NCBI GenBank assembly: GCA_963663765.2 | Contig: CAXXUA010000011.1 | Coordinates: 117,491-181,490 of the forward strand | Length of the DNA: 64,000 bases | Direction of reading: 5' to 3' | DNA from: Candidatus Poribacteria bacterium | GTDB lineage: Bacteria; Poribacteria; WGA-4E; WGA-3G | In this document: piece by piece, positions 10,696 through 61,521 of the stretch | Position numbering within the stretch: position 1 is the first letter of the stretch | How the letters are laid out: every line of letters begins with the position of its first letter | The notes under the pieces: generated by a model | What the model saw: only the letters and a program-made list of their open reading frames with translations | Databases searched by the model: none | Told to the model about the DNA's origin: nothing | Translations under genes and position numbers: made by a program

Positions 10696-10777
10696 ATGTT
10701 AAATCACACCTCCGTGCGTAATTAAATTGTAGTCTCTTGTAGATAAATGACACTATTATGAATTGAACTACATTCTT

Positions 10778-11404
10778 ATACCAATTCAAATAAATCTTGT
10801 CTCATTAAGGAATTCTACTGTTTACTGGCAGGTGGTTACTCTCTTCGGTAGGAGCGACCTCCCGGTCGCGACCGTGAGGTCGCTCCTACCAGATTTCCAC
10901 TGCTAATGAGACATTATCACATGAAAATGGTATTATACCAATTCAAATAAATCTTGTCTCATTAAGGAATTCTACTGTTTACTGGCAGGGGGTTACTCTC
11001 TTCGGTAGGAGCGACCTCCCGGTCGCGACCGTGAGGTCGCTCCTACCAGATTTCCGCTGCTAATGAGACATTATCACATGAAAATGGTATTTTACCAATT
11101 CAAATAAATCTTGTCTCATTAAGGAATTCTACTGTTTACTGGCAAGGGGTTACTCTCTTCGGTAGGAGCGACCTCCCGGTCGTGACCGTAAGGTTGCTCC
11201 TACCAGATTTCCGCTGCTAATGAGACATTATCACATGAAAATGGTATTTTACCAATTCAAATAAATCTTGTCTCATTAAGGAATTCTACTGTTTACTGGC
11301 AGTGGGTTACTCTCTTCGGTAGGAGCGACCTCCCGGTCGCGACCGTGATGTTGCTCCTACCAGATTTCCGCTGCTAATAAGACATTATCACATGAAAATG
11401 GTAT
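10778..11404. repeat. 4 tandem copies of a 157-bp palindromic MITE-like unit with central GTAG REP
   Basis: Units start at 10778, 10935, 11092, 11249; ends ATACCAATTCA/TGAAAATGGTAT; inner TGTCTCATTA/TAATGAGACA; core GGTAGGAGCGACCTC...GAGGTCGCTCCTACC. Confidence 0.95.
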
Positions 11405-11445
11405 TATATAGTACTTGTGACAAGACTCTAAATTTACTTTCTATA

Positions 11446-11600
11446 CAGGTTTTACGCAGTTTACATGATCCAACCAAGAATGATGGCGAAAATGAGGTAA
11501 GTTTCAGCAGTTTTTTAGTTTCCAGTACCCATCAAGAAATCAACGGTATGAATGCAATTTAGGTATTCACACTCGCCTAACGTTTAGTTCGTAATTCCTG
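11446..11600. mobile_element. Degenerate CAGGACTTACGCA-type MITE overlapping the ybeY 3' end
   Basis: Ends CAGGTTTTACGCA and TTCGTAATTCCTG; interior matches the reverse complement of 15895-16052. Confidence 0.65.
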
Positions 11601-15894: not shown

Positions 15895-16052
15895 CAGGAC
15901 TTACGCAAAAACTGTAGGCGGTGAATGCCTAAATGGCATTCATACCGTTGATTTGGTGCTTTGTAAGCGCGCTGGAAACCCATAAAAACGCTGATAATTG
16001 CATCATTTTCGTCATAATTCTTGATTAAATCAAGAAAACTGCGTAAGTCCTA
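15895..16052. mobile_element. CAGGACTTACGCA-type MITE with REP arm and 36-nt insertion
   Basis: TIRs CAGGACTTACGCA/TGCGTAAGTCCTA; near-identical to 22617-22738 apart from the insert at 15920-15955. Confidence 0.85.
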
Positions 16053-17078: not shown

Positions 17079-17632
17079 AGGCATTCAATTGTCACTATAC
17101 ATCTTTGCGGGAGTGCTTTCCATCCCCGATTTCTGAATCATGTATGACGCGAAATGCACAAATCAAAAACCTTTGATGAGGTAAATCCTGAAAATCTGGA
17201 AATACCGGGGAATACCATAAGGCATTCATACCCGACGAATGCCATAGGCGCAATCGGCGTTGATTTGGGGGAATGCTTTATAGCATTCATACCGTTGATT
17301 TCTTGATTTGTCCATCCTGGTTCAGACGAACTATCTTCTCCGCGCAATCCGCGTAATCCGAGATTTCGCACCCACCCTCTTGTGGAAGGGGTTTCCAACC
17401 CCGATCCTTCATCCGGTAGGAGCGACCTCCTGGTCGCGACCGTATTCGGATTTATCGCAAAGCTGCTTTCTTAGAAAATGCTTATTCTATGCCAAGAAAC
17501 CTAATGAAGAGGTCTTATCCTGAAAATCTGTAAATCCTGTAAATCCTGGTTCAGACAAAAAAACAAGCAAAAAACCTAATGCAGAGGTCTTATCCTGAAA
17601 TCCTGAAAATCTGTAAATCCTGGTTCAGACAA
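17079..17632. repeat. Cluster of REP arms, GAATGC hairpins and 9-bp-period AATCCTG...GGTTCAGAC repeats
   Basis: GTGGAAGGGGTTTCCAACCCCGA, GTAGGAGCGACCTCCTGGTCGCGA, and duplicated AAACCTAATG.AGAGGTCTTATCCTGAAA...ATCCTGGTTCAGACAA. Confidence 0.8.
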
Positions 17633-22516: not shown

Positions 22517-22616
22517 ATCGTTATCTCCTTATGTGAAATGCAATTGTATTGATGCATTAGTTTAGACGATATTCAGTTGGAAATGCAAGGAAAAAATATG
22601 ATATAATAAAGGAGTA

Positions 22617-22738
22617 CAGGACTTACGTAAAAAAGGTAGGCGTGCTTTGTAAGCGCGCTGGAAACCCATAAAAACGCTGATAATTGCATCATTTTCAACA
22701 TAATTTTTGATTAAATCAAGAAAACTGCGTAAGTCCTG
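22617..22738. mobile_element. 122-bp CAGGACTTACG-type MITE with 6-bp TSD
   Basis: TIRs CAGGACTTACG/CGTAAGTCCTG; GGAGTA on both sides (22611-22616, 22739-22744); carries REP arm GTAGGCGTGCTTTGTAAGCGCGC. Confidence 0.9.
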
Positions 22739-22774
22739 GGAGTATATTCTATCCGATGATAGAAGGAGGGCATC

Positions 22775-24589: not shown

Positions 24590-25101
24590 TTTTTGTTGAT
24601 ACAGGTGCTTGGATTGCTCTATTAAATCAGAGGGATCAATACCATCATGATGCTGTAGTTGTGTTTAACAAGTTGCAACTACATCGGATGCGATTACTTA
24701 CTACAGATTATGTGATTGACGAAACCGTTACTCGCTTTAGATACGATACGAACCACACACTTACTGTTGAATTCTTGAACCGTATTGAACTTCTGGAAGA
24801 AACAGAATTTTTAACCATTGCAGAAATCGATAAAAATGTATTTGAGGCAGTAAAATCACTTTTCCGACAGTATGACTCAGTACAACTATCCTTTACAGAT
24901 TGCACCAGTTTTGTAATTTGCCGTGTTCATAAAATTTCAGAGGCATTTGCGTTTGACCACCATTTTCCAATAATGGGAATTATAGTGGATTTTAGAATTA
25001 TTTTTACACTTTCAGGTGTAGGAGGGAACTCCGATTCCCGACTATATTCTGTGTATTGTAGGAGGGAACTCCGATTCCCGACTATATTCTGTGTAATGTA
25101 G
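24586..25101 (+). CDS. vapC: PIN-domain VapC toxin (C-terminus altered by a MITE insertion after about codon 132)
   Basis: IFVDTGAWIAL, TTDYVIDET, LSFTDCTSF, AFAFDHHF; ATGA overlap with the upstream gene. Confidence 0.9.
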   Translation: MIFVDTGAWIALLNQRDQYHHDAVVVFNKLQLHRMRLLTTDYVIDETVTRFRYDTNHTLTVEFLNRIELLEETEFLTIAEIDKNVFEAVKSLFRQYDSVQLSFTDCTSFVICRVHKISEAFAFDHHFPIMGIIVDFRIIFTLSGVGGNSDSRLYSVYCRRELRFPTIFCVM

Positions 25102-25675
25102 GAGGGAACTCCGATTCCCGACTATATTCTGTGTAATGTAGGAGGGAACTCCGATTCCCGACTATATTCTGTGTATTGTAGGAGGGAACTCCGATTCCCG
25201 ACTATATTCTGTGTATTGTAGGAGGGAACTCCGATTCCCGACAATATTCTGTGTATTGTAGGAGGGAACTCCGATTCCCGACTATATTCTGTGTAATGTA
25301 GGAGGGAACTCCGATTCCCGACTATATTCTGTGTATTGTAGGAGGGAACTCCGATTCCCGACTATATTCTGTGTATTGTAGGAGGGAACTCCGATTCCCG
25401 ACTATATTCTGTGTATTGTAGGAGGGAACTCCGATTCCCGACTATATTCTGCGTAATGTAGGAGGGAACTCCGATTCCCGACTATATTCTGTGTATTGTA
25501 GGAGGGAACTCCGATTCCCGACTATATTCTGTGTAATGTAGGAGGGAACTCCGATTCCCGACAATATTCTGTGTATTGTAGGAGGGAACTCCGATTCCCG
25601 ACTATCAACGCGTTCAGTCACGATTCGGAGATCGCTCCTATAGAAAAAGTGTAAACTTAATTGTATATTTCACTA
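24983..25675. mobile_element. TA-flanked MITE enclosing a 40-bp tandem array
   Basis: Imperfect ~29-bp TIRs TAGTGGATTTTAGAATTATTTTTACACTT / AAGTGTAAACTTAATTGTATATTTCACTA with TA on each side. Confidence 0.8.
25017..25605. repeat. 15 x 40-bp tandem array of a REP left arm
   Basis: GGAGGGAACT recurs every 40 bp from 25021 to 25581; unit TGTAGGAGGGAACTCCGATTCCCGACTATATTCTGTGTA(T/A); single complementary arm at ~25617-25642. Confidence 0.97.
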
Positions 25676-30712: not shown

Positions 30713-31288
30713 GGGTGTGTAAAGTTTTTGCACAAACTGCTCATTCTTCATTGTAGAGCGGGGTCTCTGTGCCCCGCCGCAAAATTGATTAAATGAGAGA
30801 TTGCGGTGGGGCACAGAGACCCATAGGTGTCAATATAAGGAAATATTGTTAATATCAACCATACTCTTCAGTCCCGTAGGGACGATATGTTTATAGAAAA
30901 CGAGTACCCTTCCCAGTTCTTTAGTCCCGTAGGGACGATATGTTTAACCTTCTATGTCGTTTCTATGGAACTCAAGCAAGAGAGGGTGATAACGCCTTTT
31001 TATAAACATATCGTCCCTAATGAAGTTTAAAAAATAAATTAGGTAATTCTATCTAATCCACCCTGGAAGGCGTGCTTTGTAAGCGCGCTGTTGGACTTGA
31101 TGTGCCAGCGCTCTTACAAAGCACCAAATCAACGGTATGAAACATGGAGCATGCCACAAGCGCATGCTTCTTTAGGCATTCCCCACCTACCGAGTGAGAA
31201 GTATTTATTTCCCGTTTAATAACTTAATCTTCATACGGGACTAAAGAGAACAAAAGTTTGTACCTCTGTGTAAGAACTTTACACACCC
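30713..31288. mobile_element. GGGTGTGTAAAG-TIR composite MITE, copy 1 (inverted relative to copies 2 and 3)
   Basis: Ends GGGTGTGTAAAG/CTTTACACACCC; AGTCCCGTAGGGACG REPs; nested TGAAG...CTTCA element at 31021-31233. Confidence 0.85.
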
Positions 31289-33985: not shown

Positions 33986-34592
33986 TAGTGTTGAGTCAAC
34001 ATACTCTTGTTGGTCGAGATTCGTAGATCGCTCCTACAGAAGTCTTGTGTATTGTGTGTATTGTGTGTATTGTAGGAGGGAACTCCGATTCCCGACTATA
34101 TTTTAGACGCATCAATAAACACGTGACTAAGCACTGGTGTTGAGTCAACATACTCTTGTTGGTCGAGATTCGTAGATCGCTCCTACAGAAGTCTTGTGTA
34201 TTGTGTGTATTGTGTGTATTGTGTGTATTGTAGGAGGGAACTCCGATTCCCGACTATATTTTAGACGCATCAATAAACACGTGACTAAGCACTGGTGTTG
34301 AGTCAACATACTCTTGTTGGTCGAGATTCGTAGATCGCTCCTACAGAAGTCTTGTGTATTGTGTGTATTGTGTGTATTGTAGGAGGGAACTCCGATTCCC
34401 GACTATATTTTAGACGCATCAATAAACACGTGACTAAGCACTGGTGTTGAGTCAACATACTCTTGTTGGTCGAGATTCGTAGATCGCTCCTACAGAAGTC
34501 TTGTGTATTGTGTGTATTGTGTGTATTGTAGGAGGGAACTCCGATTCCCGACTATATTTTAGACCCATCAATAAACACTTGACTAAGCACTA
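33986..34592. repeat. 4 tandem ~149-bp MITE-like units with back-to-back REP arms and a 9-bp microsatellite
   Basis: Units at 33988, 34137, 34295, 34444; unit 2 has one extra TGTGTATTG; outer ends TAGTGTTGAGTCAA/TTGACTAAGCACTA. Confidence 0.95.
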
Positions 34593-34614: not shown

Positions 34615-35162
34615 CGCAAAAAAACCTCATGCAGATGTCTTCTCCGAGTTGTTCCGTGTCATCCGAGATTCTGTCTAAACCAGGATTATCAGGATTATCA
34701 GATTACAAGGATTACCATATTAAGGTTTTTTGATGCGCGTTGGAGTCTTCTTTTGAAATAGGATTTGATGAAAAAAATCCAAAAAAACTATTAATCCCAT
34801 ATAATGCCATACGCGCATTCAATCCAGGGGAATGCTTTATAGCATTCATACCCGGGGAATGCCTAAATGGCATTCATATCGTTGATTTCTTGATTTGAAA
34901 ATTCTGGTTCAGACAACAGAGGACGTTATAACTCAGAATAGATTCTATTCCTTCAAATTGGAATTTTAGGATAAGATTAGGATTACCCAATTAGTAAATT
35001 AAACTTCATTAATTTTAAAATATTGAAACCTGAACATCGGTCTTTAGTCCCGACAATGCCATGCGCGCATTCGACGGGACTAAGACATGGACAAGATGGC
35101 AACACATAAAATTAACGTCATAGCAAAAATTCATCAATAATACCTAAAACTGAATAACCCTG
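34615..35162. repeat. Nested 9-bp-period element, GAATGC hairpins and degenerate CAGGGTTATTCAG-type MITE
   Basis: CCAGGATTATCAGGATT...TTCTGGTTCAGAC; GGGGAATGCTTTATAGCATTC and GGGGAATGCCTAAATGGCATTC; CTGAATAACCCTG end. Confidence 0.7.
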
Positions 35163-44371: not shown

Positions 44372-44565
44372 CAGAAATTTCGCAAAAACGGTAGGCGGGG
44401 AATGCCTAAATGGCATTCATACCCGGGGAATGCCAAAAGGCATTCATACCGTTGATTTCTTGATTTGGTGCTTTGTAAGCGCGCTGGAACCCTATAAAAT
44501 TACTGATTAATTACATCATTTTCAACATAATTCTTGAATAAATCAAGAAAACTGCGTAAGTCCTG
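44372..44565. mobile_element. CAGGACTTACGCA-type MITE with duplicated GAATGC insert
   Basis: Ends CAGAAATTTCGCA/TGCGTAAGTCCTG; AAGAA flanks; insert 44397-44467. Confidence 0.8.
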
Positions 44566-54446: not shown

Positions 54447-55020
54447 TGAAAATTAATAACTAAATTAGGCAATTCTATCTTATCCACAGCGGTATGCGTG
54501 CTTTGTAAGCGCGCTGGCACATCAAGTCCCCAGAGCGCGCTTACAAAGCACGCCTACCGTTTGAGAAATATTTTATTACCGATTTAATAAAATAATTTTC
54601 ATTTAGATTGTGTTCTCTGAAGCACAATCTAAATGAAAATTAATAACTAAATTAACGAGTTGTGCTAAATAACTATATATTAACCATTGTTTCACATAAG
54701 CATGACGTTTTGCAGGTGTCCTTCATAGTTTGAAACGATCTTCAGTCCCGTAGGGACGATATGTTTATAGAAAAACGTCAAAGTACATCCTCTTTAGTCC
54801 CGTAGGGACGATATGTGTGCATTATAAACCTAATATATGTAAAAACTTTGAAAACAATGGGTTAACTGGCACAAGTCGTTAAATTAGGCAATTCTATCTT
54901 ACCCACAGTTGTAGGCGTGCTTTGTAAGCGCGCTGGCACATCAAGTCCGAAAAGCGCGCTTACAAAGCACGCCTACCGTCGGAGAGATATTTTATTACCG
55001 ATTTAATAAATTACTCTTCA
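54447..55020. mobile_element. Two TGAA(G/A)-TIR MITEs; the second carries a nested ACGAGTTGTGC element
   Basis: 54447-54601 and 54634-55020 each hold a GTAGGCGTGCTTTGTAAGCGCGC REP pair; insert 54655-54879 is flanked by TAAATTA. Confidence 0.8.
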
Positions 55021-60388: not shown

Positions 60389-60537
60389 GGTACGAACCAG
60401 GGTTATTCAGTTTTCAATTTATTGAGTAAATTCTATCACTGTTGTTATTCCTTGAGTTAGTTTATTTTTAGGAGTCAACTTTTTCTTTGTCTGAACAAGG
60501 ATTTTCAAATCAAGAAATCAACGGTATGAATGCTATA

Positions 60538-61249
60538 TGAAGATTAAAAAATACTTTGGGTAATTTTACTAATCCGGCCACGGTAGGCGTGCTTTGTCCG
60601 CGCGCCTACCACTGCAGTCGTGCTTTGTCCGCGCGCCTACCACTGCAGTCGTGCTTTGTCCGCGCGCCACCAACTGCAGTCGTGCTTTGTAAGCGCGCCA
60701 CCAACTGCAGTCGTGCTTTTTAAGCGCTCCACCAACTGCAAGCCGTGCTTTGTCCGCGCGCCACCAACTGCAAGCCGTGCTTTGTCCGCGCTCCACCAAC
60801 TGCAGTCGTGCTTTGTCCGCGCGCCTACCACTGCAGTCGTGCTTTGTAAGCGCGCCCCCGATGGTAGGCGTGCTTTGTAAGCGCGCCCCCAACTGCAGTC
60901 GTGCTTTGATGAAGATTAAAAAATACTTTGGGTAATTCTACTAATCCGGCCACGGTAGGCGTGCTTTGTAAGCGCGCCCCCGATGGTAGGCGTGCTTTGT
61001 AAGCGCGTCCCCGATGGTAGGCGTGCTTTGTAAGCGCGCCCCCGATGGTAGGCGTGCTTTGTAAGCGCGTCCCCGATGGTAGGCGTGCTTTGTAAGCGCG
61101 TCCCCGATGGTAGGCGTGCTTTGTAAGCGCGCCCCCGATGGTAGGCGTGCTTTGTAAGCGCGCTGGCACATCAAGTCCCAAGAGCGCGCTTACATAGCAC
61201 GCCTACCATCTGAAAAATATTTATTACCCGATTAATAAATTAATCTTCA
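60538..61249. mobile_element. TA-flanked TGAAGATTAA MITE expanded by two REP-arm arrays
   Basis: TIRs TGAAGATTAA/TTAATCTTCA; left end repeated at 60910; arrays at 60582-60908 and 60955-61163. Confidence 0.88.
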
Positions 61250-61521
61250 TATAGCATTCCCCGGGAATGAATGCCTTATGGCATTCCCCGGGATTAGTAG
61301 ATTATCAAGATTTGTTTCATCAAATCCTATCACAAAAGAGAGCAAAAACACATATCAAAAACTCTTGATGAGGTAAATCCTGAAAATCTGGTAATCCTGA
61401 AAATCTTTGTTCAGACAATAAACAAAAAAAACCAAAAATCCCTATATTTATCAGTAATCTTAACCCAAAGTTAACCTGTATAACATGAGAATATAAAAAT
61501 TGGATAACAATGATAATCTTT

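Follow-up and report, generated by a model that had tools for sequence, protein, structure and literature searches.

How DNA units too small to encode anything can spread without transposon ends has been a standing question since the small dispersed repeats (SDRs) of cyanobacteria. SDR1-8, with units of ~21-27 nt, were reportedly described in 2008 by Elhai, Kato, Cousins, Lindblad and Costa (Genome Res 18:1484) in Nostoc punctiforme and its relatives among the heterocystous cyanobacteria. Here we analyse a 36-nt insert at positions 15920-15955 of a 64,000-nt window (the whole stretch of DNA studied, C11:117491-181490 of the 6.35-Mb, 15-contig, 41% G+C genome of a Candidatus Poribacteria bacterium, hereafter G000; G001-G024 and similar labels denote other genomes of its genus). 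What lies there is one copy of a hairpin-plus-tail module, very small, non-coding and non-autonomous, that we name the H cassette. Going by the way SDRs are described, they would be its closest known kind, a comparison that an initial annotation of the window had already drawn. [quoted passage not shown] The H cassette differs from SDR1-8 in its taxon, Poribacteria; in a unit of 35-36 nt with a 27-nt hairpin sub-unit that multiplies in chains and an 8-nt expanding tail; and in favouring positions after a C in the loops or feet of other hairpin repeats, in a genome in which no reverse transcriptase (PF00078) was detected. HIP1 has only 29 occurrences in G000.

Repetitive extragenic palindromes (REPs) tagged by GTAG, their bacterial interspersed mosaic elements (BIMEs) and REP doublet-forming hairpins (REPINs), together with the REP-associated tyrosine transposases (RAYTs), form the second body of comparison (PMC3733652, PMC8266576, PMC3116915), and one of these accounts mentions REPs 'inserted within' other palindromes (PMC3733652). 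The H cassette resembles them as a short intergenic palindrome (20-40 nt, >100 copies) occurring in mosaics, and its commonest hosts are true GTAG REPs; it differs in being an insert within REPs that has no GTAG of its own, does not flank a RAYT gene and is abundant in genomes free of Y1 transposases. Any GTAG tag that does occur is part of the host REP, as it persists in empty hosts. Insertion sequences of the IS1397/ISKpn1 class (PMC3116915) and IS110-family elements such as ISPpu9 (PMC12288879) are reported to target REP palindromes, often in the loop, but these are autonomous elements of ~1 kb or more with their own transposase, whereas the H cassette is 36 nt long and encodes nothing. Ssn GIY-YIG single-strand nucleases with cognate repeats, such as the Neisseria NTS/dRS3, offer a further parallel, as described in PMC11893778, in that small hairpin repeats in mosaics are coupled to processing of single-stranded DNA (ssDNA); the GIY-YIG matches in G000, in contrast, are not flanked by cassettes.

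The cassette at 15920-15955 (plus strand, single unit, GGTGAATGCCTAAATGGCATTCATACCGTTGATTTG) lies between GTAGGC and GTGCTTTGTAAGCGCGCTGG of a REP arm, a position we call REP site 1 (GTAGGC^GTGCTTTG), and reads GGTGAATGCC-TAAAT-GGCATTCATACC-GTTGATTTG. The general layout is GG(G/T)GAATGCC-loop-GGCATTCATACC-GTTGATTTG, comprising a G-rich 5' lead, (C)GGG(G/T); a hairpin with a 7-bp stem and a 4-5-nt loop, GAATGCC-loop-GGCATTC; ATACC on the 3' side of the hairpin; and a tail, GTTGATTT(G), extendable by (C/G)TTGATTT octamers. The sub-unit repeated inside chains, CGGGGAATGCC-N4-5-GGCATTCATAC, measures 26-27 nt, while the unit found in new hosts measures 35-36 nt, tail included. Folded as ssDNA, the hairpin at 15920-15955 reaches -10.4 kcal/mol (z -4.2 for the plus strand, -5.3 for the minus strand). 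In 89 unique inner sequences anchored by their flanks only, the proportion of stem cells that pair is 88.6%, which falls to 43.5% and 36.3% when the register is shifted, and compensatory changes of C-G to T-A (24 copies) and G-C to A-T (15 copies) occur at stem positions 5 and 7, with more double stem changes in other species; the hairpin is under selection. Two compensated stem variants, GAATACC/GGTATTC and GAATGCT/AGCATTC, can be recognised, and subfamilies are separable by loop and stem, the commonest loops being TAAAT, AAAA, TTAAT, ATAA and AATA. A sister family, H2 (CAAATGC-CATACGC-GCATTTG and relatives), has another hairpin followed by the same tail (497 H tails, 141 H2 tails). H2 (CAAATGCCATACGCGCATTTGGCGTTGATTTGG) is itself inserted in the loop of a GTCCCG^TAGGGAC hairpin within a 300-500-nt repeat, and H in turn lies in the H2 loop, making three nesting levels, both in the window (53.9-54.4 kb) and genome-wide.

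The H cassette is a discrete module. Its ends are the same, within 1-2 nt, and its orientation is single for each host, across many unrelated hosts and species. In several hosts the empty form reads L+G+R and the filled form L+GGGG...GATTTG+G+R, where L and R are the host flanks, so that filled minus empty is exactly the insert. For one such host, GGTAGGC^G^TGCTTTGT, at least 135 empty copies exist genome-wide; for another, AATGCCATAC^G^CGCATTTG, 46 copies are filled and 57 empty. Filled and empty pairs within 300-500-nt repeats were identified by excising the cassette in silico and searching the genome with the joined flanks: a filled copy at C3:41210 and an empty one at C3:42092-42591 are 99.2% identical over 500 nt with 0 gaps, and a filled copy on C15 is matched by three empty paralogues whose 45-nt flanks are identical to its own. 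No TIR or TSD was found for the cassette in these comparisons, which leave only a 1-nt G ambiguity, in agreement with the initial annotation; the ends, GGGG... and ...GATTTG, are not mutually inverted. Classification as a MITE in the sense of a cut-down DDE transposon was rejected on the same grounds, there being neither TIR nor TSD.

Of 208 distinct non-self left flanks, 91% place a C immediately 5' of GGG(G/T). Orientation is fixed in each host (156/0, 54/0, 17/0 and 18/0). Cassettes lie in the loop or 5' foot of unrelated hairpin repeats (GTAG REPs, the REP in MITE-A, H2 units), in tandem short repeats, and after hairpins of their own kind in chains of up to 7. The hosts in G024 include the loop of REP-1 (GGGAACTCC^GATTCCC), those in G001 include tandem AATCCGCG-type repeats (GTAATCC^GCGTAATCC), and dozens more host hairpins occur across species, for example CACCC..GGGTG, GGCGAGG..CCTCGCC and CCCCCTGATAAGGGG..TTTAGGGGG. 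The copies do not all descend from one ancestral insertion, which had been named as the refuting outcome, and their boundaries are consistent across unrelated hosts and species. The proposal of a site-specific mobile palindrome stands as far as an ultra-small palindromic unit, mobile on an evolutionary scale and lodged inside repeats, is concerned; 'site-specific' is too narrow, because a single REP offers two sites and the further host contexts run to dozens, sharing a 5' C and a position in a hairpin loop or foot.

Exact GAATGCC-N3-7-GGCATTC hairpins number 437 in the genome. Allowing one mismatch per arm and requiring ATACC downstream gives 630, with CGGG upstream in 466, GTTGATTT downstream in 430 and another unit directly downstream (CGGGGAAT) in 105. 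In a parsed inventory, 479 chains hold 577 units between them: 399 chains have a single unit, 69 have two, 8 have three, and there is one chain each of 4, 5 and 7 units. Depending on the count, the genome total is ~480-630 units. Tails are present on 440 of the 479 chains; 250 consist of one octamer, 143 of two and 30 of three, and others are longer. The cassettes are intergenic: 16 of the 479 chains fall in open frames of at least 200 codons, and no convincing coding insertion was found among these 16, which are 5' extensions, pseudo-frames over REP arrays or, in one case, a chance match. A terminator or regulatory role was considered from gene orientation and spacer class and set aside, as no orientation bias relative to flanking genes was found (127 same, 156 opposite) and convergent spacers are not enriched (54 of 464). 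Divergent spacers are enriched in cassettes (127/464 against 417/2863 spacers overall).

Among other members of the genus, the cassette is present in 23 of the 24 searched, with 0-163 exact matches each compared with 412 in G000; the order's other families, represented by 16 genomes, gave no match. Scanning of species representatives returned at least 101 stretches, and the matches listed (80) all come from Poribacteria metagenome-assembled genomes (MAGs) except one labelled 'uncultured bacterium'. Loop families differ by species (AACA in G013, AATAA in G018, TAAAC in G001). Since G001, G004, G016 and G024 have 0 exact REP-4 matches yet hold 73-163 cassettes, cassette number is not tied to the REP host. 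In G024, ~45 of 97 cassette matches fall within ~115 kb (C1:4.35-4.47 Mb), and at the locus 1044381-1044613 of that genome seven units form a perfect tandem array with a 35-nt period. The single match in viral contigs, on a 45.8-kb uncultivated virus genome (UViG), lies inside a REP host and gives no sign of a phage vector. Among the matches listed in a search of the literature on Poribacteria, 'palindromic' is used for CRISPR or other topics, and these repeats were not found described.

The host of the cassette at 15.9 kb had been called a REP. It is indeed a GTAG-tagged REP (GGTAGGCGTGCTTTGTAAGCGCGC), which occurs elsewhere as inverted doublets and 31-nt tandem arrays, but at 15.9, 22.6 and 44.4 kb this REP sits inside a 122-bp MITE, MITE-A, with TIR CAGGACTTACGCA/TGCGTAAGTCCTG. 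The filled host copy spans 15895-16051 (plus strand, TIR CAGGACTTACGCA ... TGCGTAAGTCCT) and contains the REP arm and cassette; an empty copy of 122 nt at 22617-22738 (plus strand) is flanked by a 6-bp direct repeat, GGAGTA, and its arm reads GTAGGC|GTGCTTTG without a cassette. MITE-A has 283 copies genome-wide, 255 of them with both ends, and its 11-13-bp TIR and 6-bp direct repeat are unlike anything in the cassette. The family appears to have transposed recently, because the 22.6-kb copy is precisely absent from a close strain: there, a run X6 contig of ~99% identity passes straight from 22613 to 22742. The nearest species representatives, 82-85% identical in the flanking genes, are without the whole repeat block at the 15.9-kb intergenic site, so comparison of orthologous sites could not separate the cassette from its host MITE. 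Fill states were parsed for 235 of the 255 two-ended copies (20 unparsed): 130 are empty at both sites, and the remainder have many different fillings. Every main MITE-A backbone subfamily includes empty, site-1-filled, site-2-filled and doubly filled copies, and gain or loss at a given host site appears to be fast relative to point substitution.

Taken together, we think it probable that the H cassette is a discrete module inserted at the DNA level into hairpins and spread from there second-hand with its hosts. Repeated moves would have been made into hairpin-forming, probably single-stranded or extruded targets, either by a trans-acting factor or by a replication-fork process, and most of the ~500 copies would have arisen by host-repeat amplification, local tandem duplication and short-patch conversion between copies of one host. 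Within this reading, our confidence in any particular enzyme is much lower.

Several observations weigh against this reading. Junctions are not fully uniform (1-2 nt are shared in one host, and a host 'AG' is replaced in the REP-2 and REP-3 tag hosts), and a strict site-specific transposase would not yield such ends. No enzyme-like open reading frame (ORF) recurring within 1.5 kb of cassettes was found, the frames that do recur there being limited to those of WD40-like paralogues, oxidoreductases, sulfatases and TnpB and to pseudo-frames over REP arrays. Loops are host-specific (mostly TAAAT at REP site 1, AAAA at REP site 2, TTAAT in the H2 loop, AATA at the REP-2 tag, ATAA in AATCC repeats), from which it follows that most copies probably multiplied as passengers, and the combination of REP-2 host and AATA loop is common to G000 and G024. 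The site-2 insert is linked to an A>G change 3 nt upstream, with GTAGGC in 28 and GTAAGC in 8 filled copies against 1 and 187 in empty ones; given this linkage and the host-specific loops, many copies would be passengers or products of short-patch conversion and not separate insertions. The loops, the shared REP-2/AATA pairing and the linked A>G are all compatible with a small number of founding insertions that were later co-amplified or converted. Continuing gain or loss is nevertheless signalled, within limits. The site-1 state changes 61 times on a backbone tree that takes in 229 of the 235 parsed copies, compared with 64 (range 56-71) under shuffled labels, a figure to be read as an upper bound because the tree is short (~116 nt) and weakly resolved. 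Among 466 MITE-A pairs differing at no more than one of 94 backbone columns, 32% are discordant at site 1 and 35% at site 2, values that are likewise upper bounds and that short-patch conversion could also produce. Finally, what was seen to be present or absent between strains was the host MITE, not the cassette by itself, and the junction of unique flank and TIR at the 15.9-kb copy had 0 matches in a metagenome scan; the repeats at 15.9 and 17.2 kb interrupt the short-read contigs, none of which bridges a cassette site.

A rival reading is a fossil module with no mobility of its own: each host would have acquired the cassette once, illegitimately, and all later variation would stem from amplification, tandem duplication, deletion and gene conversion. 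Linkage of the A>G marker to the site-2 insert is what co-conversion predicts, the host-specific loops and the host-loop combination kept between species agree with it, the host MITE is demonstrably recent and mobile, and on the backbone tree the site-2 state shows partial clustering, with 19 changes where shuffled labels give 36. We nevertheless regard this account as rather unlikely, for the same cassette ends recur in dozens of unrelated hosts across species with species-specific loop families, chains mix loop subfamilies, a filled and an empty copy share 99.2% identical flanks, the site-1 state is unclustered on the tree, and near-identical backbones are often discordant.

A search for a mobilising enzyme covered the candidates that had been suggested, namely an HUH, recombinase or reverse transcriptase gene flanked by the motif, and none was found. 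G000 has four IS200/IS605 tnpA genes, one RAYT-like gene and 43 TnpB (Cas12f1-like_TNB) matches, the latter from several IS605/IS1341-type families (e.g. C5:1758415, C4:533163, C5:549770); one TnpB family has ~25 near-identical 1.4-kb copies, and tnpA accompanies four copies. Five TnpB/TnpA element families were delimited, none with ends or hairpins related to the cassette, which removes IS200/IS605 as source or mobiliser; an apparent TnpB-MITE fusion proved to be a MITE inserted in a tnpB gene. Derivation as an IS200/IS605 mini-element similar to the palindrome-associated transposable elements (PATEs) was likewise rejected, as the cassette has one hairpin only and only C fixed on its 5' side, the IS ends are unrelated, and TnpA is absent from cassette-rich genomes. 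The RAYT-like Y1 gene (C4:621598-622074) has HUH and Y motifs and opposed GTAG REP arrays on both sides (GTAGGAGGGAACTCCGATTCCCGAC and GCGATCTCCGAATCGC type), a REPtron-like arrangement, and homologues occur in 24 of 39 genus genomes. GIY-YIG nucleases (PF01541) were dismissed because cassettes flank none of the six matches; only a match in a 582-aa open frame comes within 3 kb of a cassette, which lies 721 nt upstream.

This inventory bears on the possibility that the cassette is a REP variant in a BIME-like mosaic, moved by RAYT or IS200/IS605 TnpA through ssDNA hairpin cleavage and rejoining beside GTAG. RAYTs are described as cleaving and rejoining ssDNA REPs with GTAG as guide (PMC8266576, PMC3733652), and G000 offers both such genes and GTAG-tagged REP hosts, with ~200 of the 479 chains starting directly after (G/C)(T/C)AGGC. 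A hairpin with fixed orientation and neither TIR nor TSD also follows the logic of HUH elements. Cassette orientation correlates with the sign of the local GC skew (211 against 131), a strand test on which we do not rely because the skew flips every 100-200 kb without clear replichores and the copies are not independent. Against these points, the cassette itself is without a GTAG, many hosts are untagged at the junction, no cassette was found within 3 kb of the RAYT gene, and the ends and hairpins of the IS200/IS605 elements are unrelated. Cassette number also does not track Y1 transposases across the genus: G024 (one contig, 97 cassettes), G001 (four contigs, 73) and G010 (97) have no PF01797 match, while G009 has 21 such matches with 3 cassettes and G003 has 3 with 0. 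The junction lies after C and before G or C, whereas the RAYTs studied so far are reported to cleave at CT or CA under GTAG guidance (PMC8266576). On this evidence we consider mobilisation by RAYT or TnpA distinctly unlikely.

Spread through an RNA intermediate with reverse transcription is very improbable. Such a route was reportedly suggested by Elhai et al. in 2008 for the cyanobacterial SDRs, which the cassette resembles overall in having a small hairpin, being nested and lying within short tandem repeats, and contigs from RNA runs do cover MITE-A sequence, although they are not assignable to one locus. No PF00078 match at E<=1e-5 was found, however, in G000, with its >400 copies, nor in the cassette-rich G024, G001, G017, G004 and G005, and only 18 of 39 other genus genomes have one; the lack of orientation bias to flanking genes also speaks against it. 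The mover appears not to be a TIR/TSD transposase, and co-occurrence points to neither Y1/RAYT nor reverse transcriptase. We offer tentatively, and at low confidence, that H and H2 could represent an undescribed 'hairpin-into-hairpin' class of module. Their tail, CGTTGATTT(G), might then be the recognition or joining site of an ssDNA-acting integrase, a nuclease-ligase or an enzyme-free fork process, by which a 27-36-nt hairpin would be dropped after C in extruded loops, independently of Y1/HUH and reverse transcriptase and by the same kind of activity as in the cyanobacterial SDRs.

Within the window, the 36-nt insert and the empty REP arms reported by the initial annotation are borne out, the latter (GTAGGC|GTGCTTTGTAAGCGCGCTGG) lying at 22.64, 54.50, 54.92 and 61.15 kb; an empty REP doublet at 54910-54970 (no strand assigned), with two inverted GTAGGCGTGCTTTGTAAGCGCGC arms, exemplifies the unoccupied host. 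Chance is excluded as a source of these matches, because REP arms with up to 3 mismatches occur 17 times in the window against 0 expected and the 4-nt-loop form 3 times against 0.01, in addition to the 437 exact hairpins genome-wide. The form at 44397-44467 (plus strand, 71 nt) does occupy the same REP site, as had been observed, but it is not the simple duplication supposed: its hairpin loops differ, so that it is a chain of two subfamily members, a TAAAT-loop unit and an AAAA-loop unit, ending in a two-octamer tail. This 71-nt two-hairpin form recurs in other MITE-A copies. At 31125-31184 (minus strand, 60 nt), a cassette in the right arm of a REPIN-like REP doublet does hold the sub-insert attributed to it, a second hairpin (GAAGCATGCGC..GGCATGCTCC) nested in its loop; the fold there is weak (z -1.9), and the 60-nt nested form is also found at site 1 of other MITE-A copies.

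The remaining sites that had been listed, at about 11.5, 17.2, 34.8, 54.4, 60.5 and 61.25 kb, all hold units or parts of units. A degenerate single unit lies at 11531-11572 (minus strand; tail AAATCAAC, GGTATGAATGC..GGTATTC). The three-unit chain at 17207-17310 (plus strand) comprises an H unit with the GAATACC stem, an H2-type GAATGCCATAGGCGCAATC with tail and an H unit with the GAATGCT/AGCATTC stem, all embedded in AATCC-type short repeats, and at 34802-34897 (plus strand) an H2-type hairpin precedes two H units and a two-octamer tail. Another unit lies at 54.44 kb. On the minus strand, a split unit has its tail and first half at 60507-60537 and its second half at 61250-61265 (TATAGCATTCCCCGGG), followed by a hairpin unit without tail at 61266-61293 (GAATGCCTTATGGCATTCCCCGGG). 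The hairpin loop of the split unit is interrupted by a ~710-bp MITE-like element (60538-61249; TIR TGAAGATTAA...TTAATCTTCA) with an apparent TA duplication; elements with the same TIR are also found in REP hairpin loops elsewhere (C3:123185), and the window copy carries two 31-nt REP tandem arrays. Large tandem arrays of REP-containing units occupy 10776-11408 (157 nt x 4), 25017-25605 (40 nt x 14.7) and 34204-34591 (149 nt x 2.6). An Rfam search of the window returned tRNA as its only match.

The H cassette behaves like one of the smallest mobile DNAs known. To the question raised by the cyanobacterial SDRs it adds a second, unrelated phylum with a clear anatomy: a fixed hairpin-plus-tail, many known empty hosts and a sister family that shares the tail alone. 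The negative co-occurrence with Y1/RAYT and with reverse transcriptase narrows the search for a mechanism, and the 40 genomes of the genus, with 0 to >400 copies each, form a data set suited to association tests. For the study of Poribacteria as sponge symbionts, these nested repeats break short-read assemblies at predictable places, and annotation of Poribacteria MAGs should mask or model them.

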